Shown piece after piece: positions 1 through 48,978 of a stretch of 50,126 nucleotides of DNA (within the stretch, counting starts at the first letter, position 1; each line of letters starts with the position of its first letter). Source of the DNA: Escherichia phage AugustePiccard. The notes beneath the pieces were generated by a model that saw only the letters and a list, made by a program, of their open reading frames with translations, was not told where the DNA came from and did not search any database. Made by a program: the position numbers and the translations under genes. Where the stretch lies: sequence record MZ501051; one strand, written 5' to 3'.

Positions 1-507
1 ATGAGCAAAGCAGCATTAAAGATGGGCGAGGGAAATTTCAAGGCGCTCTACAACAAGAAGTATGGCGACATTGCTATGGTGGCAATCAACCGCAAGTACA
101 CGCCTGAGGAGGTATTTGACTTTGCCGTTCGATACTTCTCATGGGCCGAGAGTGAGGCAATAAAAGCAATTGAGACGGCAGCATTTCAAGGCGTGGTTAG
201 TGAAAGCCTGGTACATAAACCTCGAGTGTTCACATTAACCGGGCTGGCGCTCTTCATGGGTGTTAATATCAATAGATTCGCTCGCTGGCGTACTGAGGCT
301 GGATACTCTGATGTGATGGAATTTATTGATAACGTAATTTACGAGCAGAAATACCAACTTGGCGTTGCGGGTATCATCAACTCTACCATTGTCGGTAAAG
401 AGCTAGGCATTGATAAGCCGCAGGAAATCACTATTAGCAACAACTCCACCGCTAACGACGTTGATAGCATGAAGGAAGCGCTGGAGTCTGTGATTAGTAA
501 GCTGTAA
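1..507 (+). CDS. terS: terminase small subunit (putative)
   Basis: 168-aa ORF immediately upstream of the large terminase; a promoter and RBS AAGGAGG at the window end feed the ATG at position 1. Call by position and size. Confidence 0.55.
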   Translation: MSKAALKMGEGNFKALYNKKYGDIAMVAINRKYTPEEVFDFAVRYFSWAESEAIKAIETAAFQGVVSESLVHKPRVFTLTGLALFMGVNINRFARWRTEAGYSDVMEFIDNVIYEQKYQLGVAGIINSTIVGKELGIDKPQEITISNNSTANDVDSMKEALESVISKL

Positions 508-608
508 AAATATGAGGGTATAACAATGAAAGGCTTTATTAAATTATTCATTTGGTATTATTTATTAACGAGCATATCTCTTTGTGTCTTTATGTTGGTG
601 GTTAAGCT

Positions 609-2177
609 ATGGCTAATTTAATCTGGGAAGAAATGACAAGTCAGGAGAAATTAGCCGTTAAAGCTATCTCAGAGCATAGTTTTGAGGGCTTTTTAAGGTG
701 TTGGTTTTCAATAACACAAGGCGAGCGATACATACCTAACTGGCATCACAAGTACCTGTGTAGAATCATTGACGAGATTATCGCAGGGGAACGTAAGGAC
801 ACCATCATCAACATAGCGCCGGGCAGCGGAAAGACAGAAATCGCTTCAATCCACTTCCCTGCCTACTCTATGGTTAAGCTGAAGAAGGTGCGGAACCTTA
901 ACATCTCCTTTGCTGACTCACTGGTTAAGCGTAACTCGAAGCGCGTACGTGACCTTATCAAATCTCAAGAATTTCAATCACTCTGGCCATGCAAGTTTGG
1001 AACGTGCAAAGACGATGAACTTCAGGTTCTTGATGAGAATGGCAGGGTTAGATTTGAGTCAATATCAAAGGCGGCGGGAGGTCAGATTACAGGCGCTCGA
1101 GGTGGCTATATAACAGAAACATACAGCGGGGCCGTTCTATTGGATGATTTCGACAAGCCGGCTGACATGCTTTCTCAGGTTTATCGAACGAATAATCACG
1201 TAATGCTCAAGAACACAATTCGCTCACGTCGAGCTAGCTCTGTGAAAGGCAAGGCAACGCCAATAATTTCTATACAGCAGCGACTCCATGTGAATGATAG
1301 CACTTGGTTCATGATGGAAGGTGGTATGGGTATTGACTTCGACTTGATTAAGATACCGGCATTGGTTACTGAGGATTACATTGATTCACTTCCTGACTGG
1401 ATTAAAGAGCAGTTTGCTGATGACGTACTAAGTAGCGAATATATTGAGCGAGATGGCGTAAAATACTACAGTTATTTCCCTAAAAAGGAATCTGTAAACG
1501 ACCTAGTGGCAATGTGGGATAGTGACCCGTACACATTCCTTAGCCAGTATCAGCAGGAACCTGTAGCGCTCGGCGGCAATCTGATTAACGTGGATTGGTT
1601 CCAGAGAATCAGCGATACGTTCAGACCTCCAGCTAAATATGACTATCGATTCATAACTTGCGACACTGCGATGACTACAAAGAGTTATAGTGACTTCTCT
1701 GTACTTCAATTGTGGGGCTATAAAGATGCCAAGATTTACCTGATAGACCAGCGTAGAGGTAAGTGGGAGGCGCCGGAGTTGGAATCTGAACTACTGGATT
1801 TCGAGAGGAAATCAAGAGCAACCAGTCAGACGGATGGTATCCTTAGAAAGATTATCATCGAGAAGAAGGCTTCCGGAATTGGCCTAATTCAATCCGCAGG
1901 TAGAGTTATGCGAACACCGATAGAGCCATATGTTCCGGATAACGACAAGCTAACCAGGATAATGAGCGCCCTGCCGCAGATTAAGGCTGGTAACGTCGTT
2001 CTTCCAGAATCAGCACCGTGGCTAAATGGATTGCTTACGGAGGTTGCGGCTTTCACCGCGGATGACTCTCATAAGCACGACGACCAAATTGACTGTCTAA
2101 CAATGGCGGTAAACCTTGTTCTCAATATAGCAGATGATCCAAAATCAAGAATGCTTCGCCTTGCCGGAATAAAATAG
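609..2177 (+). CDS. terL: terminase large subunit
   Basis: 522 aa; Walker-A-like NIAPGSGKTEIAS; C-terminal nuclease-like acidic residues; first gene of the morphogenesis block. Confidence 0.8.
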   Translation: MANLIWEEMTSQEKLAVKAISEHSFEGFLRCWFSITQGERYIPNWHHKYLCRIIDEIIAGERKDTIINIAPGSGKTEIASIHFPAYSMVKLKKVRNLNISFADSLVKRNSKRVRDLIKSQEFQSLWPCKFGTCKDDELQVLDENGRVRFESISKAAGGQITGARGGYITETYSGAVLLDDFDKPADMLSQVYRTNNHVMLKNTIRSRRASSVKGKATPIISIQQRLHVNDSTWFMMEGGMGIDFDLIKIPALVTEDYIDSLPDWIKEQFADDVLSSEYIERDGVKYYSYFPKKESVNDLVAMWDSDPYTFLSQYQQEPVALGGNLINVDWFQRISDTFRPPAKYDYRFITCDTAMTTKSYSDFSVLQLWGYKDAKIYLIDQRRGKWEAPELESELLDFERKSRATSQTDGILRKIIIEKKASGIGLIQSAGRVMRTPIEPYVPDNDKLTRIMSALPQIKAGNVVLPESAPWLNGLLTEVAAFTADDSHKHDDQIDCLTMAVNLVLNIADDPKSRMLRLAGIK

Positions 2178-2217
2178 CACTTTATGCAAAGAATAAAGCT
2201 CACGGATGAGCTAACAT
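2173..2217 (+). promoter_or_regulatory. degenerate box promoter upstream of HNH copy 1
   Basis: AATAGCACTTTATGCAAAG; the TAG is the terL stop codon; weak -10. Confidence 0.3.
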
Positions 2218-2239
2218 AATCAAAACAAGAGTGGGTGTT

Positions 2240-2716
2240 ATGAATTGGGCTGAATTTTTTAGATACGAAGATGGAAATCTGGTAAGGGTTACCACAACCT
2301 CAAGTAGAGCTATTGAGGGCATGGTTGCTGGAAGCTTGTCTGGCAATGGCTATCTGCACATAAGAATAGGCGACAGGCGTGTAAAAAACCATCTCATAAT
2401 TTGGGAGATGCACAATGGAAGGATACCAGAAGGGATGGAGATAGATCATATCAATCACATAAAGACAGATAACAGGATCGAGAATTTAAGGCTCGTAAGT
2501 CACAAACAGAACCTATCAAACGCATCTCTTAGGTCAGACTCGTCAACTGGTGCGAGTGGCGTTAGTTGGAACAGAAACAGGCAGAAGTGGCACGCTTATA
2601 TAAAGTCTAACTACAAGAGGATGCACATAGGATTTTTTGATTCCTTTGATGATGCCGTAGCAGCAAGAAAGAAAAAGGAGATTGAATTGGGATTTCATGA
2701 GAATCACGGAAAATAG
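2240..2716 (+). CDS. HNH homing endonuclease with AP2-like DNA-binding domain (copy 1)
   Basis: Motif IDHINHIKTDNRIENLR plus SGVSW..W.AYI; starts MNW like copies 2 and 3 (track ORF begins at GTG 2231). Confidence 0.8.
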   Translation: MNWAEFFRYEDGNLVRVTTTSSRAIEGMVAGSLSGNGYLHIRIGDRRVKNHLIIWEMHNGRIPEGMEIDHINHIKTDNRIENLRLVSHKQNLSNASLRSDSSTGASGVSWNRNRQKWHAYIKSNYKRMHIGFFDSFDDAVAARKKKEIELGFHENHGK

Positions 2717-2756
2717 CACGAATTGCTAAACGACTAGGCCACGGATGGCGTATAGT
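2711..2756 (+). promoter_or_regulatory. box promoter (palindromic box + 22 nt + -10)
   Basis: AAATAGCACGAATTGCTAAA, 22-nt spacer, TATAGT; leader CAAAACGAGAGGAG. Confidence 0.6.
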
Positions 2757-2787
2757 TACCTTACCAAAACGAGAGGAGAAAAGATAA

Positions 2788-3168
2788 ATGACAAAAAAAT
2801 CAAAGGCTGTATATCTTGGCAACACCGAAGGAGAGTATTATGGTTTCACTGTAGGGAATGAATATGATGTTCACAATTATGAAACTGAAGATAACTTCAT
2901 TGGTACTTTTGGTGATGATGGTGGTTATCGTCACATCAAGAACGGAGCATTCCACAAGTTCGAACTCCTCGAGGATTATGATTTCGTAACTGAAAGCGAA
3001 TGCGCAGTCATGCCCCTTAGTTCCGATAAACAACCAGAGCTTAGATATTTCATAAACGGTCATGAGTTTAATAAGATTGAGTTCGAAAATGTGCGCTATA
3101 CTGTAAATCAACTTGATGAGGGCGGCGTAAAATGCGACACAATCAAGTTCGAAGTAAAATTCGAGTAA
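2788..3168 (+). CDS. hypothetical small protein (moron; paralogue of 17915..18232)
   Basis: Own box promoter and conserved leader; shares GEY.FT.G..Y pattern with ORF 17915..18232; followed by a terminator. Confidence 0.6.
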   Translation: MTKKSKAVYLGNTEGEYYGFTVGNEYDVHNYETEDNFIGTFGDDGGYRHIKNGAFHKFELLEDYDFVTESECAVMPLSSDKQPELRYFINGHEFNKIEFENVRYTVNQLDEGGVKCDTIKFEVKFE

Positions 3169-3225: not shown

Positions 3226-4488
3226 ATGGTAAAAACAGACAGCTACGCCAATATCTTTCTCGGCGGCAGTGATGGCAGTGAGATTTACGGGAGCTTACAG
3301 AATCAGGAACCTACTATTCTGGCTTCGCTTTATGCGGATAATGCCCTGGTGCGTCGAATTATTGACACAATCCCGGAAACAGCATTAGCGGCAGGATTCA
3401 ACATTGATGGTGTTGATGATGAATCTGCATTCTGGTCGCGCTGGGATGATTTGGAGATGACGCAGAATATTAACGACGCTTGGTCATGGGCAAGGTTATT
3501 CGGTGGAGCAGCAATTGTCGCTATCGTTAAGGACAATAGAGCGCTAACAAGTCCGGTCAGAGAAGGCGCCGAGCTTGAAACGGTTCGCGTTTACGACCGC
3601 ACACAGGTAAAAGTACAAACCCGCGAGGAAAATCCAAGAAACTCGCGATTTGGTAAGCCCCTAACCTATCGCATCACCACTAATGAGAGCGATATGTTCT
3701 TCGATGTGCACTACAGCCGTATTCACGTCATTGACGGAGAGCGAGTCCCTAACGTAATGCGCAGGCAGAATGATGGCTGGGGCCGCAGCGTTCTATCTAG
3801 TGACATTCTTGACTCGATTAAGGATTACACCAACTGTGAACGACTTGCCACGCAATTACTGAAGCGTAAGCAGCAAGCGGTGTGGAAAGCAAAAGGTCTG
3901 GCTGAGTTATGTGATGATAGCGAAGGATTCGGCGCGGCAAGATTAAGGCTTGCACAGGTAGATAATAACAGTGGCGTTGGTCAGGCGATTGGCATTGACG
4001 CGGAATCGGAAGAGTACAGCGTACTCAACTCTGATATTGGCGGGATTGATGCATTCCTGGATAAGAAGTTCGACAGAATCGTTGCGCTGAGCGGCATCCA
4101 TGAAATCATCCTGAAGAACAAGAACGTTGGCGGCGTGTCATCAAGCCAGAATACGGCACTGGAGACATTCCATAAGCTAGTTGACCGCAAGCGTAATGCT
4201 GAGCTACTTCCTATTCTTGAGTTCTTAATCCCGTTCATCGTTAACGTATCGGAATGGTCAGTTGAGTTTAACGCCCTCGCTCAGGAGTCCAGCAAGGATA
4301 AAGCCGAGATTCTTGAGAAGAACGTAAACAGTATCGCAGCACTAATTGCAGCTGGAGCTATGGATACTAACGAAGCCCGTGATACACTACGAACTATCGC
4401 GCCAGAGATTAAGATTGGTGAAGGTGATATTGAGGTTGAAGAACCAACTCAGGAAGTAATCGCGCAGACAGAGGAACCTAATGAATGA
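3226..4488 (+). CDS. portal protein
   Basis: About 420 aa, follows the terminase; acidic C-terminus; RBS GGAG before ATG 3226 (the track start at 3199 lies inside the terminator hairpin). Confidence 0.65.
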   Translation: MVKTDSYANIFLGGSDGSEIYGSLQNQEPTILASLYADNALVRRIIDTIPETALAAGFNIDGVDDESAFWSRWDDLEMTQNINDAWSWARLFGGAAIVAIVKDNRALTSPVREGAELETVRVYDRTQVKVQTREENPRNSRFGKPLTYRITTNESDMFFDVHYSRIHVIDGERVPNVMRRQNDGWGRSVLSSDILDSIKDYTNCERLATQLLKRKQQAVWKAKGLAELCDDSEGFGAARLRLAQVDNNSGVGQAIGIDAESEEYSVLNSDIGGIDAFLDKKFDRIVALSGIHEIILKNKNVGGVSSSQNTALETFHKLVDRKRNAELLPILEFLIPFIVNVSEWSVEFNALAQESSKDKAEILEKNVNSIAALIAAGAMDTNEARDTLRTIAPEIKIGEGDIEVEEPTQEVIAQTEEPNE

Positions 4489-24390: not shown

Positions 24391-24436
24391 ATAGTATCGC
24401 ATCCTTGCGATCAGTGTTTAGCAATTCGTGCTATTC
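24391..24436 (-). promoter_or_regulatory. box promoter for the Cor-like lipoprotein
   Basis: Minus strand: GAATAGCACGAATTGCTAAA, 22 nt, TACTAT, CCATCGAAACGAAACG; the box encodes the methyltransferase C-terminus N-S-T-N-C-stop. Confidence 0.6.
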
Positions 24437-33462: not shown

Positions 33463-33936
33463 TTAATCTTTAGCTTTTCGTGCTGCTTCGTTAGCTGCCT
33501 TAATCTTGCGCCACGATCGACACTCTGGCTTGGTGGCCAGTTCAGCCTCAGTTACCACACGCAGCATGTGACGTTTTTTGCAGCGTAGAGTTAGTGGTTT
33601 TCCGTTACCGTCGAATTGCAGGTCTGGTCTACAGAATGTGGCGCGAAAACCTTCTCCGGTTCGTTTGTAGTAGTTGTGCGACAGTTGAGCGCCACGTGCA
33701 GAAATCATACCACGCTTAAACCACTCTTCTACAGCCTGCGGCGTTACCTTTAACTGCTTTGCGATATTCGCCTTTGTGCCGAAGAAATCAAGAATCATCT
33801 CTAACCTTGCGCGTAACCCAGCCCTTACCTCATCTTTCAAAACGTAGTAACCTGAAGGTCGCTTTCGCTGCTTTTTATCTTCAGTGCGGATGGTTCCGTT
33901 ATTGCCGTTAATGGTTCGCTTGTCAATTGTACTCAT
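33463..33936 (-). CDS. HTH DNA-binding protein (putative transcriptional regulator)
   Basis: Helix-turn-helix-like segment TKANIAKQLKVTPQAVEEWFKRGMIS; basic protein; first gene of a leftward block. Confidence 0.5.
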   Translation of the reverse strand: MSTIDKRTINGNNGTIRTEDKKQRKRPSGYYVLKDEVRAGLRARLEMILDFFGTKANIAKQLKVTPQAVEEWFKRGMISARGAQLSHNYYKRTGEGFRATFCRPDLQFDGNGKPLTLRCKKRHMLRVVTEAELATKPECRSWRKIKAANEAARKAKD

Positions 33937-34037
33937 TTCATTACCTCGATAGCATTTTTTGTTAAAAGTCATTCTGATTTGATGGTAGTATTGTACTCAA
34001 TTAAACGCTACAAGACAATTTTTATAGGAATTTAGAT

Positions 34038-36817: not shown

Positions 36818-37038
36818 TGGCAATTTTTACACTTGAAAAACAATGGGAAGTTTTCCAGTCGATGGTGGATCAGGAGTTGCATAAAGCTGGGTATAAACAT
36901 GAAGGCTGGGATATGGCTTGGTGCCTGGATATGAGCTTTGAAGAAGACTACCTGAATACTGATATCGAAACGTGGCGCGACCGCATGGTTGCAGACATTG
37001 AAGAAATGAAGAAAGATTGCCCGGAGGATTTCTTATGA
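36817..37038 (+). CDS. hypothetical protein
   Basis: 73 aa, overlaps upstream stop (TAATG). Confidence 0.45.
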   Translation: MAIFTLEKQWEVFQSMVDQELHKAGYKHEGWDMAWCLDMSFEEDYLNTDIETWRDRMVADIEEMKKDCPEDFL

Positions 37039-38004: not shown

Positions 38005-39135
38005 ATGGCAACTGCAAAAATCACCAACGAACAATTGCGCGAAGAGCTAGCAAATGGCATGACCAACAAGGCAATCGCAGAGAAGTACGGAATGAACATT
38101 CGCAACGTTGAATTGCGTCGCAGTAAATTAGCGAAGAGTGGAGAATTGCACGGAAACCCGGGAATCAAGAAGTTAGTTCCTGACGGCTATTTGGTCAAAG
38201 GGACGTCAACGATGATTGACGCTGAGGGCAACGAAAAGATTCGCTGGGTTAAGACCTCTGTAGATAATGAGCGCCTTGAGGTTTTGATGGAACAGGCTCG
38301 AGAGGCATTCTGCTCTGAGTTGCCAAAGGCAGATTCGGTCACCCACTCAGGCAATGAGGTCAACTCTGAATTAATGACTCTTTACCCTATTTTCGATATC
38401 CATATCGGCATGATGGCTCATCGACATGAGTCTGGTGAAAATTATGACACCAATACCGCAGAGAAATTAATGGAATCATATTTCGATCATGCAATTTCTG
38501 TATCGCCATCCTCAGAGAAAGCTGTGATTTTAGTTGGCGGCGACTTCCTTCACTCTGACGGATTGGAAGCTGTAACCCCAGCAAGCGGACACTGCCTTGA
38601 TCAGGATAGTAGGTATGCTAAGTTAGTTTATGTTGCGATTCGCTCAATTCGTGGTGCCGTAGAGAAGATGCTTAAGAAGCATAAGAATGTCGAGATTCAG
38701 ATTATAGAGGGAAATCATGACCAGAGTGGTATGATTTGGCTCCGTGCGGCAATGGCTGCATTTTATGAAAACGAGAGTCGCGTCTTTGTTGATACCAGTC
38801 CGGCAATCATGCACAAAACTAGATTTGGCTCAACATTACTTGGTTACACACACGGCCACACAATGAAGAAGGCAGAAGGCAGGCTTGCAGCTATGGCAAC
38901 TGATTACAGGAAAGATTTTGGTGAGTGTGAATTTGTTTATTGCCATTCCGGGCATTTTCACCACGCAACTGTTACAGAGTGCACACTTGGGATTGATGAG
39001 GTTCACCCAGCCCTGGCTAGCAAGGATGCATATGCCGCTCGCGGAGGGTGGCGATCATATCGCCAAGCGGCTGCAATTGTTTACCACAAGAATTTTGGCG
39101 AGGTTGGTCGACACATTTATCGCCCCGGTATGTAA
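38005..39135 (+). CDS. metallophosphoesterase (calcineurin-like) with N-terminal HTH domain
   Basis: N-terminal HTH-like segment (MTNKAIAEKYGMNIRNVELRRSKL); phosphoesterase motifs DIHIG, GGDFLHSD, GNHD, THGH, GHFHH. Confidence 0.6.
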   Translation: MATAKITNEQLREELANGMTNKAIAEKYGMNIRNVELRRSKLAKSGELHGNPGIKKLVPDGYLVKGTSTMIDAEGNEKIRWVKTSVDNERLEVLMEQAREAFCSELPKADSVTHSGNEVNSELMTLYPIFDIHIGMMAHRHESGENYDTNTAEKLMESYFDHAISVSPSSEKAVILVGGDFLHSDGLEAVTPASGHCLDQDSRYAKLVYVAIRSIRGAVEKMLKKHKNVEIQIIEGNHDQSGMIWLRAAMAAFYENESRVFVDTSPAIMHKTRFGSTLLGYTHGHTMKKAEGRLAAMATDYRKDFGECEFVYCHSGHFHHATVTECTLGIDEVHPALASKDAYAARGGWRSYRQAAAIVYHKNFGEVGRHIYRPGM

Positions 39136-41514: not shown

Positions 41515-43098
41515 TCACCCCAGCAGTCGTGGATTAATGTAAACTTTATCACCAATCAGGCATGTATAGTTTTTCTCATCTAACATCGGCAGCAAGTGGT
41601 CTTTAATCTTTGTCATCACTCCAGCCTGAGACTCGAACGGCTTAACCTTGCGCGCAGCCTCATACAATGAACGAATGCCAACTACGCCTTTCCCGTTCTT
41701 TCCTTGCTTGATAAGGATATCAATCAGCTTATTCATCTCGGCATTGTCGCCAGCGTGACCAGCGGCGTTAGCAGATGACAGATAAGTCTTGCTAAGCTCC
41801 TGGAACATGATTACAGCCTCTTGCATTGTGTCCAGTCCAATCTCTCTGGACTTCTGCGGGCTTCCGCCATTTGGGTTAAACCAGTTACGGACAGTGTGAA
41901 TAACTGCGGCAATCCTGATAGCCTGCTTATCGAACTTGCCCAGCGCGCCGCGCAACATAGTATGTGAATACTTACCGCCATCAGCAAGATGGGGCTCCAT
42001 TTCCTGACGTGCACGGTTGAGATATTTCATCGCTGAGTTACTCACTGTCAGCTTTACTTCCTGCTCGCTCATGATTTCGTGAACCAAGCGGAAGTAGTCA
42101 GCCTTCAGTCCGCTGTCAATTGGCTCGTATGTTGACTCTCCATTCTCATCAACGAATACACGTTCGCCCAGGAAGGACTTTTCACGCACAAGCAGAAAAC
42201 GCTCCGACACACCGATACCACGCGCACCAGCATTCATAATGGCGTTGATTGTTTCGTCCTGCGCAATTACCGAGATGCAACCCATAGCAACGAAACTCAT
42301 GTTGTTCTCTGCGTTCGCACGCGCGATAGATACGTTACCAGCATCCCATGCTTTAAGCACGAGTTCACTGTTTGTTTTCTTTGAGCCATCTCCATAGGTC
42401 ATGCCCAGAAGTGAGTTCACGCTCGTCGCCTCATCCGAGATTACTGCGAAGTTTCCCTGGCGGTTGTTTATTCGCGCAAGTCCCTCAGGCGTGGTGTCGG
42501 ATACGGGGAAAACGATATCGCATAGCTTCTCGAGTTTCTCCTCCAACTCCTCTTTCTCTTCAAAAAGTGAAGCCATCTCTGAAGGAGATTTTTCCTGCTT
42601 CATCTCTTTGGATAATGCAGATAGTTTGGCCATAATCTTTTTGCGCTCGCGTTTTCGCAATTCATTTAGTCGCTCAGTCTCGGCAATCATCGGGGCAATA
42701 GAAAGTGAGTTAATCGCTGATTTACCGGTCGATGGAGGTTGACTTGTAACTACGTAAAGAGATGTTGGCTGCTGCGTTCCGTGATACTCAACAGTAAAGC
42801 GGCCCAGCATAGCAGCGGAAATGCAACCCAAAAAGTGCATATAAGCTGAAGACTCCGGGAACTGAACAGAACGAGCAATGTTGGCTGACAGTCTACCAAC
42901 AACGTCAACATCATTTCCGAGCGAGATTACAGGATACTTGTCATTGGCCGCATCAATCTCGACCGGTGCTTTCCAGAATGACTGAGACTGGCGATAGCCA
43001 TTAGCATTGATAGCCACGCGCAGGGGTGGGAGGTTTTCTGCGGCAGCTATTGCCATAACTTGTTCAACAGATAGTTTATCTTCGTTGAAATCAAACAT
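41515..43098 (-). CDS. large hypothetical protein with deviant P-loop (replication-associated?)
   Basis: 527 aa; P-loop-like PPSTGKS; N- and C-terminal segments paralogous to ORF 45945..46469; RBS GGAGAG. Confidence 0.55.
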   Translation of the reverse strand: MFDFNEDKLSVEQVMAIAAAENLPPLRVAINANGYRQSQSFWKAPVEIDAANDKYPVISLGNDVDVVGRLSANIARSVQFPESSAYMHFLGCISAAMLGRFTVEYHGTQQPTSLYVVTSQPPSTGKSAINSLSIAPMIAETERLNELRKRERKKIMAKLSALSKEMKQEKSPSEMASLFEEKEELEEKLEKLCDIVFPVSDTTPEGLARINNRQGNFAVISDEATSVNSLLGMTYGDGSKKTNSELVLKAWDAGNVSIARANAENNMSFVAMGCISVIAQDETINAIMNAGARGIGVSERFLLVREKSFLGERVFVDENGESTYEPIDSGLKADYFRLVHEIMSEQEVKLTVSNSAMKYLNRARQEMEPHLADGGKYSHTMLRGALGKFDKQAIRIAAVIHTVRNWFNPNGGSPQKSREIGLDTMQEAVIMFQELSKTYLSSANAAGHAGDNAEMNKLIDILIKQGKNGKGVVGIRSLYEAARKVKPFESQAGVMTKIKDHLLPMLDEKNYTCLIGDKVYINPRLLG

Positions 43099-44179: not shown

Positions 44180-44359
44180 ATCTCAATCCTCACCAGGGTA
44201 AACATTCTTCGCAGCCAAGCCCATCGCAGCACAGGAATTCATCTTCTGACTGGAATTGCTTCGCCAGGTCAATATCGATTCGTCCGCGCAAAACCATGTC
44301 TGTATACATCTCATTTAATCCAATCAGTGCAGATTCGTGGCGTAATTCATCTTTCTTAT

Positions 44360-44617
44360 TCATACCTTTTCCATCTCCGCAATAAAGCAGTTGACAACAA
44401 TCAACTTATCTTCGGTGTCCAGCTTCGATGCCTTAAGTGCCTCGACAAGGTTTTTAATGTCGATGCCGTCATGGAACAACTCGGCGCCAATGTTGCACAA
44501 CTGAACGCTATTGATCGTCGGCGTGCTAACACTAACTTTAATCGTGTCCGCCTTAGCAAATCCAATACCAGATGCCAGGACTGCCGCGATGTATCCAATG
44601 GTGATTAACTTTTTCAC
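44360..44617 (-). CDS. small secreted protein (signal peptide)
   Basis: N-terminal signal peptide MKKLITIGYIAAVLASGIGFAKA. Confidence 0.5.
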   Translation of the reverse strand: MKKLITIGYIAAVLASGIGFAKADTIKVSVSTPTINSVQLCNIGAELFHDGIDIKNLVEALKASKLDTEDKLIVVNCFIAEMEKV

Positions 44618-44796
44618 AAATCATTACCCTTTAAGCTGTCATATCTGATGGCGTCTCTGTTGCACTTTCTGGTCTTGCCATGAAGCACCTGCTTAAACTC
44701 AATTGTACCTTGCTGCCTTAGCTTTTTATATCTTCCTTGCGACTTACTTATTTCTTCAATCTTTTGTTGCGCTTTCAATTCCGGTCTCTGCTTCAT
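44614..44796 (-). CDS. hypothetical basic protein
   Basis: 60 aa, Lys/Arg/Gln-rich; first gene downstream of box promoter at 44824..44870. Confidence 0.45.
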   Translation of the reverse strand: MKQRPELKAQQKIEEISKSQGRYKKLRQQGTIEFKQVLHGKTRKCNRDAIRYDSLKGNDL

Positions 44797-44823
44797 ATCT
44801 ATACCCTCGTTGTTGATGAGCTA

Positions 44824-44870
44824 ACTATACCCTCAACAGCCGCGCTTGTCTTTAGCAAAAAGTGCTATTC
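44824..44870 (-). promoter_or_regulatory. box promoter for the leftward small-gene block
   Basis: Minus strand: GAATAGCACTTTTTGCTAAAG, about 23 nt, TATAGT, leader CATCAACAACGAGGG. Confidence 0.55.
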
Positions 44871-44895
44871 GTTAGATTTATGGATTGTTGCGGAT

Positions 44896-44939
44896 ATTGC
44901 AATGATTCCCATGATTATTGCACATATAGCAATATTGCT
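44896..44939. promoter_or_regulatory. cluster of short palindromes (ATTGCAAT, AGCAATATTGCT) in divergent region B
   Basis: Perfect palindromes sharing the TTGC/GCAA half-site with the promoter box. Confidence 0.4.
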
Positions 44940-45150
44940 TCAGATGCAATGATGTTTTTGATTGTTGCGAAATGAGCAATAAAGTAGTGAGTGAGTGAAT
45001 GAAAGATGGATGGACTACCATACAAGTTGATTTTGATTCTGCTAATCCATTTTCACGCTTACACGTAACGCCCGTAGCGCGATGTAAGCCAACGCCTATC
45101 GTTACGCGAGTTACGCGCAGCTACGCCTAGACTTACACTATAAGTGCCTA

Positions 45151-45200
45151 ATATATATATATATCTTCTTTCTATTATTATTATTATTATTATTATTATT
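45151..45200. repeat. microsatellite (AT)7 ... (ATT)9 in divergent region B
   Basis: atatatatatatat then (att) x9. Confidence 0.85.
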
Positions 45201-45405
45201 GTATGTAAGTCATGTAACGGGGTTTCCGGCGATATCTATATGTTTTTTCCTATCAGTTATAGCCTTGGCTATAATTTAAGGTATGGAGTGGGTGTTTTGG
45301 GGCCATTTGCCTCGTTACACGCACGACACGCCACTTACATTAAGCTATAGCTGGGCTAGCATACCATTTCGCGTAACGACCCCCAAAAGTTACCAAAAAT
45401 TACAC

Positions 45406-45434
45406 TTGACTACATGTGTAAGTCGGGATATGAT
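45406..45434 (+). promoter_or_regulatory. canonical sigma70-like promoter (TTGACT-17-TATGAT)
   Basis: TTGACT 45406-45411, 17-nt spacer, TATGAT 45429-45434, then leader AAACGAGAGGAG. Confidence 0.5.
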
Positions 45435-45465
45435 GGACTCAACTTAAACGAGAGGAGTGATAGAG

Positions 45466-45945
45466 ATGAACGAGAAAGTAACATTGGGCCAAGTGATTCG
45501 TGAGATGGTGAAAGCAGCGCTTAAGTCTGAGGACAAGCAGATCAGCGTGACACTCAACAAGATTGAGAGCCTTATCGGCGCCGAGGAGGGTGGTCTAAAT
45601 AAGCTTAAGAGCTCATACATCTACAATACAACGGCTCGCATGCCTGAGTTGAGAGATGCCGGACTGAAGGCGACTCACCACTATGATGAAGAAAGGGGTG
45701 TTAATGAATATACTGGGAGTGAGATACTTGGAGACAAAAAGCTTGTTATTAAACTAATTCCAGGCTCGGCAAACATTGGAATCAGGAAGAAGACCAACGA
45801 CGCGATCAAGGATGAGGCAATCACTGAGTTCAAAGCCAGGATTTCTAAGGTGATGCCAGACCTTTCTGCGTATGAAGGTGAGGCCCTTGCAGCCGCTATG
45901 AAGGCCATTAAGGATTACCGTTTGATTATTGAGGAGATTAAGTGA
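45466..45945 (+). CDS. hypothetical protein
   Basis: ATG 45466 after leader AAACGAGAGGAG; canonical sigma70-like promoter upstream. Confidence 0.5.
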   Translation: MNEKVTLGQVIREMVKAALKSEDKQISVTLNKIESLIGAEEGGLNKLKSSYIYNTTARMPELRDAGLKATHHYDEERGVNEYTGSEILGDKKLVIKLIPGSANIGIRKKTNDAIKDEAITEFKARISKVMPDLSAYEGEALAAAMKAIKDYRLIIEEIK

Positions 45946-46469
45946 TGTTTGACTTTAACGAGGATAAACTGACAGAAGAGCAGGTAATTGAGATAGCCAA
46001 GCAAGATGGGCTGCCGCCGCTGCGAATTGCAATCAATGCTAACGGGTATCGACAGTCAACGGCGTTTTGGGGCTCGATTGATACCTCAGGGGTGTATAGT
46101 GGTGATGAGCTTGGTGTAATGATTAAAATCATCAGGAAAATGGGAGTTAACGGCAAAGGAGTTGTTGGCGTCAGGTCTCTATATGAAGGTGCTCGCAAGC
46201 TGAAACCATTTGCGGGGCGCGATGGGATGATGCTACTGATTAAGGATAAGCTAATTCCAGAGCTCGACAAGATGAATATCACGTGCCTCATTGGCGATAA
46301 GATTTACGTCAACCCTGCCTTGACGGATTTAAGCTGGCATCCTAACTTCAAAACTTACGAAGGTGAGCACGCTAGTAGACTACCATACCACTTGCGGTAC
46401 ACTGAGGAAGAGGTGGAGAAGGCTATTGAGTTCTATCGGAAAGCTAAATCACTAATTATCGCCAAATAG
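45945..46469 (+). CDS. truncated paralogue of the 527-aa protein (N- and C-terminal modules only)
   Basis: N-terminus MFDFNEDKLTEEQV...LPPLRIAINANGYRQS and the segment NGKGVVGVRSLYEGARKLKPF...NITCLIGDKIYVNP align to the termini of ORF 41515..43098. Confidence 0.6.
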   Translation: MFDFNEDKLTEEQVIEIAKQDGLPPLRIAINANGYRQSTAFWGSIDTSGVYSGDELGVMIKIIRKMGVNGKGVVGVRSLYEGARKLKPFAGRDGMMLLIKDKLIPELDKMNITCLIGDKIYVNPALTDLSWHPNFKTYEGEHASRLPYHLRYTEEEVEKAIEFYRKAKSLIIAK

Positions 46470-48921: not shown

Positions 48922-48978
48922 GTTAACAATCTGGTTTATCTCAGGTCTGATTACTTGGGCTTACTTTATGGTGGCGGC

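Follow-up and report, generated by a model that had tools for sequence, protein, structure and literature searches.

Four regularly spaced dyads in the control region of the T1-like Escherichia phage AugustePiccard: a candidate operator array for a Cro-fold protein

The largest intergenic region in the genome of Escherichia phage AugustePiccard holds, upstream of a leftward promoter, a cluster of short palindromes, which raises the question of what kind of protein reads these sites and what is controlled through them. The stretch of DNA analyzed here (sequence record MZ501051, 50,126 nucleotides, hereafter the window) is, at ~50 kb, the complete genome of a T1-like siphovirus of the Drexlerviridae, whose nearest relatives are Guelphvirus- and Rtp-like Braunvirinae, e.g., PCEc3, DTL, CEB_EC3a, and BEK2/3. 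Its largest intergenic region (positions 44797 to 45456) is a 660-bp control region: to the left lies a leftward unit composed of small open reading frames (ORFs) and the gene for a DUF3987 helicase, and small early genes to the right form a rightward unit that continues to the genes for the small terminase (TerS, the first gene of the window) and, next to it, the large terminase (TerL). A preliminary description had viewed the palindromes as an operator array and, on the strength of a shared TTGC/GCAA half-site, had assigned them to the same or a related protein as the box of the leftward promoter. We find that the palindromes derive from four 17-bp dyads, and we put at about even the chance that these dyads constitute an operator array for the phage's own Cro-fold protein, encoded at 33463-33972, which would tune the leftward operon.

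The four dyad sites, S1 to S4 (Table 1), have the form RTTGC-N7-GCAAT and are arranged with centre-to-centre distances of 30, 17, and 30 bp, the whole array being symmetric about 44933.5, the middle of the AGCAAT/ATTGCT palindrome. All of the elements reported earlier are present: ATTGCAAT at 44896-44903, AGCAATATTGCT at 44928-44939, two copies of GATTGTTGCG at 44883 and 44960, and a GTGA repeat at 44987-44998. The short palindromes, however, are by-products of the four-dyad architecture, in that AGCAATATTGCT is the junction of S2 and S3, ATTGCAAT arises where an additional ATTGC overlaps the right half of S1, and the two copies of GATTGTTGCG correspond to the left halves of S1 and S4 in extended form. 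The GTGA repeat is no component of the array and belongs to a separate segment that is variable among relatives. Copies of ATTGC/GCAAT reach 7 per 100 bp at the array, the maximum of the 50-kb window, versus a genome mean of 0.375. The stricter TTGC-N7-GCAA occurs six times in the genome, as opposed to 1.43 +/- 1.14 times expected from dinucleotide-preserving shuffles, none of 100 of which reached six; four of the six copies fall inside 94 bp, for which a Poisson estimate is ~1e-13. A repeat search independently returned a 26-nt unit in three copies, starting at 44878, 44908, and 44955. The array is the sole such cluster in the genome, and its S2-S3 double-dyad core is, within IMG/VR, confined to T1-like genomes apart from two chance matches. 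Weak matches to the dyad (two mismatches or fewer) number 64 genome-wide versus 35 expected, but they are scattered through coding DNA, probably reflect Ile-Ala and Ala-Ile codons, and are uninformative.

The four sites also carry an evolutionary footprint. In an alignment of 10 T1-like relatives (MSK, CJ19, phiEB49, a 12210I-type phage, e4/1c, ESCO41, Sf12, CEB_EC3a, a metagenomic contig, and DTL), only 3 of 40 half-site columns are variable, compared with 31 of 54 columns in spacers and linkers (Fisher p = 3e-7) and 18 of 28 in the spacers alone, and there are no indels from the promoter box to the end of S4. Invariant half-sites, free spacers, and rigid spacing together point to a sequence-specific, oligomeric DNA-binding protein, and a 17-bp dyad whose half-site centres are 12 bp apart suits a dimer of a helix-turn-helix (HTH) protein, as in Cro and repressor operators. 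Anatomy and footprint alike fit the earlier view of an operator array, with a dimeric DNA-binding protein as its reader. That the cluster instead arose by chance as low-complexity sequence, or is an RNA element with a structure of its own, is scarcely credible: the array region is indeed AT-rich (65%) and lies near microsatellites, but the shuffle statistics and the conservation footprint exclude chance, and, against an RNA element, the region has no match in Rfam and folding z-scores of just -1.4 and -1.7.

Which protein reads the dyads can be approached through the mosaic make-up of phages that carry or lack them. In the Nouzillyvirus phages CJ19 and ESCO41, the array is ~90% identical at the nucleotide level, with homology stopping exactly at 44980, the end of S4, and most proteins are only 45 to 60% identical to those of the window, with an overall protein identity of ~50% (56% for TerS and 49% for TerL). 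Islands of high identity in these two phages consist of the DUF3987 helicase (93%), two small neighbouring ORFs (85 to 90% in CJ19), a few scattered others, and an HTH protein (~91%) that is unlinked to the array and whose flanking genes are only 45 to 57% identical. Sf12 has intact dyads together with a helicase that is 93% and a TerS that is 65% identical to that of the window, and the HTH proteins of Rogunavirus (e4/1c and AKS96) are 84 to 87% identical. In the clade formed by ECH1, ACG-M12, MM01, and SCS31, the structural proteins are 90 to 98% identical, the HTH protein is 64 to 65% identical and has a different recognition helix, and the dyads are missing; five records have the ECH1-type HTH protein, and it is precisely these five that have intergenic DNA of the ECH1 type. 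Overall, the array is found in 132 records, an HTH protein of at least 80% identity in 128, and a DUF3987 helicase of at least 90% identity in 127, counts that are unable to separate the HTH protein from the helicase.

A finer discriminator is provided by the recognition helix of the HTH protein, which we compared across 12 phages, with the dyads of AKS96 deduced from a BLAST match and those of the other seven dyad-bearers read directly. The signature LKV[ST]xQ[AT][VI], spanning helix 2, the turn, and helix 3, is present in all eight phages with dyads (the window, CEB_EC3a, CJ19, ESCO41, e4/1c, AKS96, T1, and PHB17) and absent from all four without them (ECH1, KLPN1, TLS, and NBD2). T1 carries GTTGCatggtgtGCAAC and GTTGCttagaatGCAAT at positions 2 and 32, i.e., 30 bp apart, along with a third dyad at position 165, and its HTH protein has the signature. 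For two phages the outcome was predicted before their intergenic DNA was read, namely dyads in PHB17, which has the signature, and none in NBD2, which does not, and both predictions held: three GTTGC-N7-GMAAN sites occupy the equivalent position in PHB17, a member of the Tempevirinae, and there are none in NBD2. Among the three proteins that the preliminary description had named as possible readers, the HTH protein is therefore the one whose recognition helix co-varies with the dyads; neither Rha nor the protein encoded at 38005-39135 is co-distributed with the array.

Several lines of evidence assign this protein a Cro fold. Its match to the Pfam family P22_Cro (4.7e-6) is below the curated cutoff, its PHROGs family is that of a transcriptional regulator, and its only sequence match in the PDB is P22 Cro (1rzs; E = 1.1), which is not significant alone. 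An AlphaFold model (pLDDT of 88.5) has as its top fold matches the all-alpha Cro proteins of Xfaso1 (3bd1) and of the N15 Cro-operator complex (6on0), with probabilities of 0.99 to 1.0, albeit with weak E-values of 0.03 to 0.2, and we take the modelled protein to have a Cro fold. Across 67 members of the family, the recognition helix is hypervariable and the remainder is conserved, as expected for a DNA reader whose specificity resides in that helix.

If the dyads are operators for this protein, each of them would bind one dimer, and four dimers on rigidly spaced sites would assemble into a single nucleoprotein complex. Such a complex would most likely tune the leftward operon, which encodes the DUF3987 helicase, and our best guess is that it would shut down or modulate this operon after the early phase. 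The closest parallels are the operators of the lambdoid Cro and CI proteins (OR1-3 and OL1-3 of lambda, and the sites for the Cro proteins of P22 and N15), which likewise are groups of neighbouring 17-bp dyads within a divergent early control region, their half-sites being conserved and their central bases free to vary. The candidate reader here has the all-alpha Cro fold, as do the Cro proteins of N15, Xfaso1, and P22; moreover, the pairing of a hypervariable recognition helix with types of site recalls immunity groups. Features of Cro and repressor operators that recur here are dyads of 14 to 18 bp with conserved half-sites, a fixed spacing that would allow cooperative binding, and co-variation with an HTH helix. 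The lambdoid systems differ in that their sites are neither confined to upstream positions nor free of promoter overlap, as the present ones are (~-70 to -160 from the predicted leftward start), and in that the regulator is not 11 kb away within a replication module. The protein of the window is, in addition, 157 to 169 amino acids (aa) long in its family, with conserved N- and C-terminal extensions, the symmetric 30/17/30 layout of four sites is peculiar to this array, and the window phage is virulent and has no repressor.

A number of observations weigh against the pairing of this protein with the dyads. The dyads overlap neither the -35/-10 elements nor the box, an uncommon placement for a repressor of the Cro type; 11 kb separate the HTH gene from the array, the ORFs that are adjacent to the array are not co-inherited with it, and no dyad was found near the HTH gene's own promoter. 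T1 has dyads even though its HTH protein is just 49% identical to that of the window. The phages compared are related, such that the eight-of-eight and four-of-four counts amount to perhaps three or four independent contrasts, and the HTH-dyad pairing is a correlation only. The DUF3987 helicase is co-inherited with the array as well, and its terminal domains diverge in ECH1. Finally, the predicted recognition helix of TerS also changes in ECH1, and the ECH1 clade therefore does not separate the candidates.

Table 1. Coordinates of the dyads, the candidate reader proteins, and neighbouring elements in the window
Feature	Position	Strand	Sequence or identification	Remarks
Dyad S1	44887..44903		GTTGC-GGATATT-GCAAT, centre 44895	Right half overlaps ATTGCAAT; half-sites invariant in 10 relatives, first 3 spacer bases vary
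Dyad S2	44917..44933		ATTGC-ACATATA-GCAAT, centre 44925	Perfect ATTGC-N7-GCAAT; TTGC and GCAAT invariant, several spacer positions vary
Dyad S3	44934..44950		ATTGC-TTCAGAT-GCAAT, centre 44942	Abuts S2; junction is a perfect 12-bp palindrome, AGCAATATTGCT
Dyad S4	44964..44980		GTTGC-GAAATGA-GCAAT, centre 44972	Weakest site; some relatives have GAAAT or GCGAT as the right half
HTH protein	33463..33972	-	Cro-fold HTH protein, T1 gp23 family, phrog_2856	Candidate dyad reader; HTH sequence KANIAKQLKVTPQAVEEWF
Leftward promoter core	44824..44852	-	Sigma-70-like, AAGACA-17-TATAGT	Consensus match; predicted to drive ORF 44614-44796 and the operon beyond
Promoter box	44851..44868	-	ATAGCACTTTTTGCTAAA	One copy of the 21-nt Drexlerviridae repeat; part of the leftward promoter cassette
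DUF3987 helicase	41515..43098	-		Co-inherited with the array; 93% identity in CJ19; rival reader, or partner if the array is an origin
Small terminase (TerS)	1..507	+	P22 gp3 family, Pfam GP3_package	Rival dyad reader; likely reader of 44981-45015
C-poor pac-adjacent segment	44981..45035	+	Includes GTGA repeat 44987-44998	Packaging start of relatives maps here; first ~35 bp change with TerS type

The cluster does lie upstream of a leftward promoter, as had been stated, which is predicted to be early and has a promoter-like core of AAGACA-17-TATAGT and a box on the minus strand; S1 starts 19 bp past this box and 35 bp past the -35-like hexamer, and no promoter-like site was found within the array itself. 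The second half of the earlier claim, that box and dyads share a half-site and hence a reader, is not supported. The box, ATAGCAC-N3-TTGCTAAA, has an everted GCA..TGC arrangement and belongs to a 21-nt repeat that produces 24 matches in the window versus 6.4 expected, with ~20 good copies, in promoter cassettes with a constant order: the box, 19 to 20 nt, a TATAGT-like -10, a conserved transcribed leader of the CATCGAAACGAG type, and a ribosome-binding site. None of the dyads matches ATAGCACnnnTTGnTAAA followed by a -10 at 19 to 20 nt, and near the array only 44851-44868 does. The box is retained in T1, TLS, KLPN1, ECH1, and NBD2, the last four of which have no dyads and all five of which have other HTH helices, making a common reader improbable; the box is most likely read by something other than the dyad reader. 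The 21-nt intergenic repeat is the one reported for TLS, aaATAGCACnnnTTGnTAAAA, as being of unknown function (PMC11447400). The T1/TLS-like repeat and the dyads thus have in common the TTGC/GCA tetramers and one place, a single copy beside the array, but the repeat is a promoter-cassette element present ~20 times per genome throughout the Drexlerviridae, whereas the dyads form a single, lineage-specific cluster with the opposite half-site arrangement. Examples of the cassette are found at 2713, 17841, 28104, 36445, 46466, 47617, and 48606 on the plus strand and at 24434, 43604, and 44868 on the minus strand. Within the cassette, TTGCTA is 22 nt from the -10, too distant for a normal -35, which suggests a class of activator-dependent promoters.

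The main rival to the operator reading is an origin role for the same sites, in which the dyads would be initiator iterons like those of lambda, and either the Cro-fold protein or the helicase's own terminal domains would bind them and load the helicase at the adjacent C-poor, AT-rich tract. We regard this as possible, though on balance doubtful. Three of the Nouzillyvirus islands, the array, the HTH protein (91%), and the DUF3987 helicase (93%), were inherited together; the HTH gene is located between the primase and helicase genes; and the divergence of the ECH1 helicase is concentrated in its N-terminal (61% identity) and C-terminal (67%) domains, the core being 80 to 98% identical. The hypervariable helix is also compatible with types of origin specificity, and four dyads beside a strand-asymmetric AT-rich tract, which would supply the at least three to four repeated initiator sites of an iteron origin, recall the origin of lambda, where an AT-rich region adjoins four annotated iterons. 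The likeness extends to the co-inheritance of the array with a helicase and to pairs of site and protein whose specificity differs between related phages, as with the O protein of lambda; the lambda iterons, however, are inside the O gene, whereas the dyads are intergenic, and the candidate reader has a Cro fold and is not O-like. That fold matches Cro regulators rather than known initiators. Helicase similarity, in addition, does not track the dyads beyond the core group (73% in TLS, without dyads, and 57% in T1, with dyads), and scans of the intergenic region for host-factor consensus sequences (DnaA, IHF, and GATC) found none. On the side of an origin role, no origin is known for T1-like phages (PMC11447400); the same reannotation of TLS reports no lambda-type iterons in the gene compared with lambda's origin-bearing gene or elsewhere in TLS (PMC11447400).

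The 35 bp that adjoin the array are C-poor and ~65% AT, and a 93% AT tract lies ~175 bp away with other repeats around it. A more classical origin-like structure is present 80 to 450 bp rightward of the dyads, which tells against the dyads themselves being the origin: between 45058 and 45425, the heptamer VTTACRC occurs eight times (0.75 expected), in both orientations, on either side of the AT tract at 45157-45196, which is made up of (TA)n and (ATT)n microsatellites. Related TTACGC-type repeats are found at the equivalent place in T1, CJ19, Rtp, and ECH1. Farther to the right, a 175-aa ORF on the plus strand (45942-46469; phrog_7327) encodes a paralogue of the DUF3987 helicase that has no ATPase core and is reduced to ~43 aa of the N terminus and ~75 aa of the C terminus; among close relatives, its identity ranges from 35% to 87%.

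The array also adjoins a packaging start, a feature that the preliminary description had not noticed and that obliges us to consider a role for terminase as well as for an origin. For phage MSK, PhageTerm places the forward headful start at 36862 (PMC8421802), which corresponds to 45018 of the window in a pairwise alignment that is gap-free at this point (MSK is 91% identical over the region). The end of the SU57 record, which was set from PhageTerm and a step in read coverage (PMC7718038), falls at ~45035, and the pac site of TLS has been mapped by restriction to the homologous region (PMC11447400), where TLS and the window share GTAGTGAGTGAGT (44985-44997). These positions (45018 to 45035), which come from relatives and not from the window phage, are 40 to 60 bp to the right of the array. 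The dyads might then be an array for TerS that directs the first cut 40 to 60 bp rightward, in the manner of SPP1 pacL or lambda cosB, an explanation that we consider improbable.

In favour of a pac site are the proximity of the MSK and SU57 positions to the dyads, as befits a site at or near the first cut, the restriction mapping in TLS, and the uniqueness of the array in the genome, as well as the fact that the T1, ESCO41, and Rtp records start inside it (position 1 coincides in T1 with the left edge of the first dyad and in Rtp with 44928 of the window) and that the T1 RefSeq record annotates a repeat_region at 1..2800. Most record starts, however, appear to have been fixed by homology to T1 and not by experiment: the KanT1 paper says so, the order of locus tags suggests it for ESCO41, and the starts are heterogeneous, so that we give them little weight as evidence for pac. 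A fifth perfect ATTGC-N7-GCAAT dyad at 70-86, inside terS (ATTGCTATGGTGGCAAT), would also speak for terminase. The pac sites of P22-family phages are located within the terS gene. This site is retained in eight Braunvirinae terS genes with a sole change in the spacer, but it is coding, includes only two informative synonymous positions, is within the range of chance (~0.09 expected), and is lacking in CJ19, Sf12, and T1, and it is probably coincidental. Drexler is reported to have placed, in 1984, the initiation of T1 packaging on lambda DNA between genes P and Q; a scan of lambda for TTGC-N7-GCAA found none in the P-Q interval, one in gene D, and one N8 variant past Q, which lends no support to terminase, although the test is a weak one that depends on the reported position of the site.

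More telling is that the predicted recognition helix of TerS takes three very different forms in dyad-bearing phages (NINRFARW, GPNAIAKW, and TSGAIQSW/TASSIQSW, with TerS identities of 56 to 65%) across which the half-sites are invariant, which makes TerS an unlikely reader of the dyads. What does co-vary with TerS is the ~35 bp immediately to the right of S4 (44981-45015), which come in types that match the TerS type: all seven phages with the NINRFARW/NINRFASW type carry the window version, and in CJ19 and ESCO41, whose TerS proteins have 93% identity, the shared sequence right of S4 is limited to the first ~36 bp. Varying with TerS and bordering the packaging start, this GTGA-containing segment is a separate element and a better candidate for pac recognition than are the dyads, and recognition by terminase is likely for 44981-45035. 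Known terminase arrays (SPP1 pacL and pacR, the R-sites of lambda cosB, and the hexamers of P1 pac) resemble the dyads in being unique clusters of a short motif within ~130 bp of a cut from which packaging runs away, and they differ in that the dyads do not co-vary with TerS and the neighbouring 35 bp do. ECH1 had appeared to offer a clean dissociation of TerS from the array, which we dropped since its TerS helix differs too: its terS gene (3877-4383) and that of the window encode proteins with 15 differences in 168 aa, five of them within 12 residues of the predicted recognition helix (NINRFARWRTEA versus KIGSFARWRSEP), and this change coincides with a wholly different pac-proximal sequence. 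As read from the sequence, the control region splits into three parts: the operator-like dyad array, tied to the Cro-fold protein, a terminase-linked segment at the packaging start, and an origin-like set of iterons with its AT tract.

It is very improbable that the dyads are bound by a host protein or by some further phage protein. More than one reader seems to act in these control regions, given that those of other lineages hold families of palindromes that do not follow the HTH helix, e.g., the TTCCA-type sites in T1, KLPN1, and NBD2. A host factor, though, leaves unexplained why the dyads are present or absent by lineage among phages of the same host, and we know of no Escherichia coli regulator with an RTTGC-N7-GCAAT consensus. 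As for phage proteins, none of the array-bearing relatives has a homologue of the adjacent ORFs (44360-44796), and the distribution of the array is not matched by that of DUF7174, Rha, the 175-aa helicase paralogue, or the 38005-39135 protein. Just past the box, in the place that S1 takes in the window, TLS (~1092-1122) has two tandem copies of AGACCGATTGGTCT, NBD2 has four to five copies of ATTATTCCA and one of AGACCGATTGGTCT, KLPN1 has TATTCCACCGATTCGGAATA (48949-48968, at the end of the record), and T1 has TTCCA-N7-TGGAA (1160-1195).

Returning to the Cro-fold protein as the reader, it is conceivable, though we think it unlikely, that the array, this hypervariable protein, and the termini of the DUF3987 helicase make up a lineage-specific specificity module that virulent T1-like phages exchange horizontally as a unit. 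A pattern of such exchange is seen between Braunvirinae, Rogunavirinae, and Nouzillyvirus. The module may be a set of origin, initiator, and helicase or an immunity-like control switch situated beside pac, and would, if real, sort these phages, which are without lysogeny, into compatibility groups. Dyad operators for HTH proteins are a familiar kind of element; for the dyads described here, no earlier description was found in the searchable literature by a search that did not take in the T1 and Rtp genome papers. The comparisons yield a concrete candidate pair of protein and DNA, along with a helix signature that predicted sites in a phage of an unrelated subfamily (PHB17). Should the pairing hold, it would account for the variable recognition helix in a family known as a transcriptional regulator, and it would provide a handle for engineering or blocking T1-like phages, which are classic pests of laboratory and industry and candidates for phage therapy. 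The questions of control region, origin, and pac are listed as open for T1-like phages in the reannotation of TLS (PMC11447400).

The ORFs nearest to the array (44360-44796, minus strand) encode proteins of 85 aa and 60 aa, the latter very basic, for which no homologue was found in the fetched relatives. All 92 megablast matches to a query of 44300-45500 begin at or past 44790, which points to a private insertion directly after the leftward promoter. Several near-identical T1-like coliphage sequences are recorded under unlikely hosts, among them several "Campylobacter" phages and Pseudomonas phage PsgS01F, which at 44,679 bp has the same length as the E. coli phage PCEc3, and a T1-like piece sits within the 143-kb Enterococcus phage vB_EfeBG-143; such sequences probably stem from contamination or from chimeric assembly.

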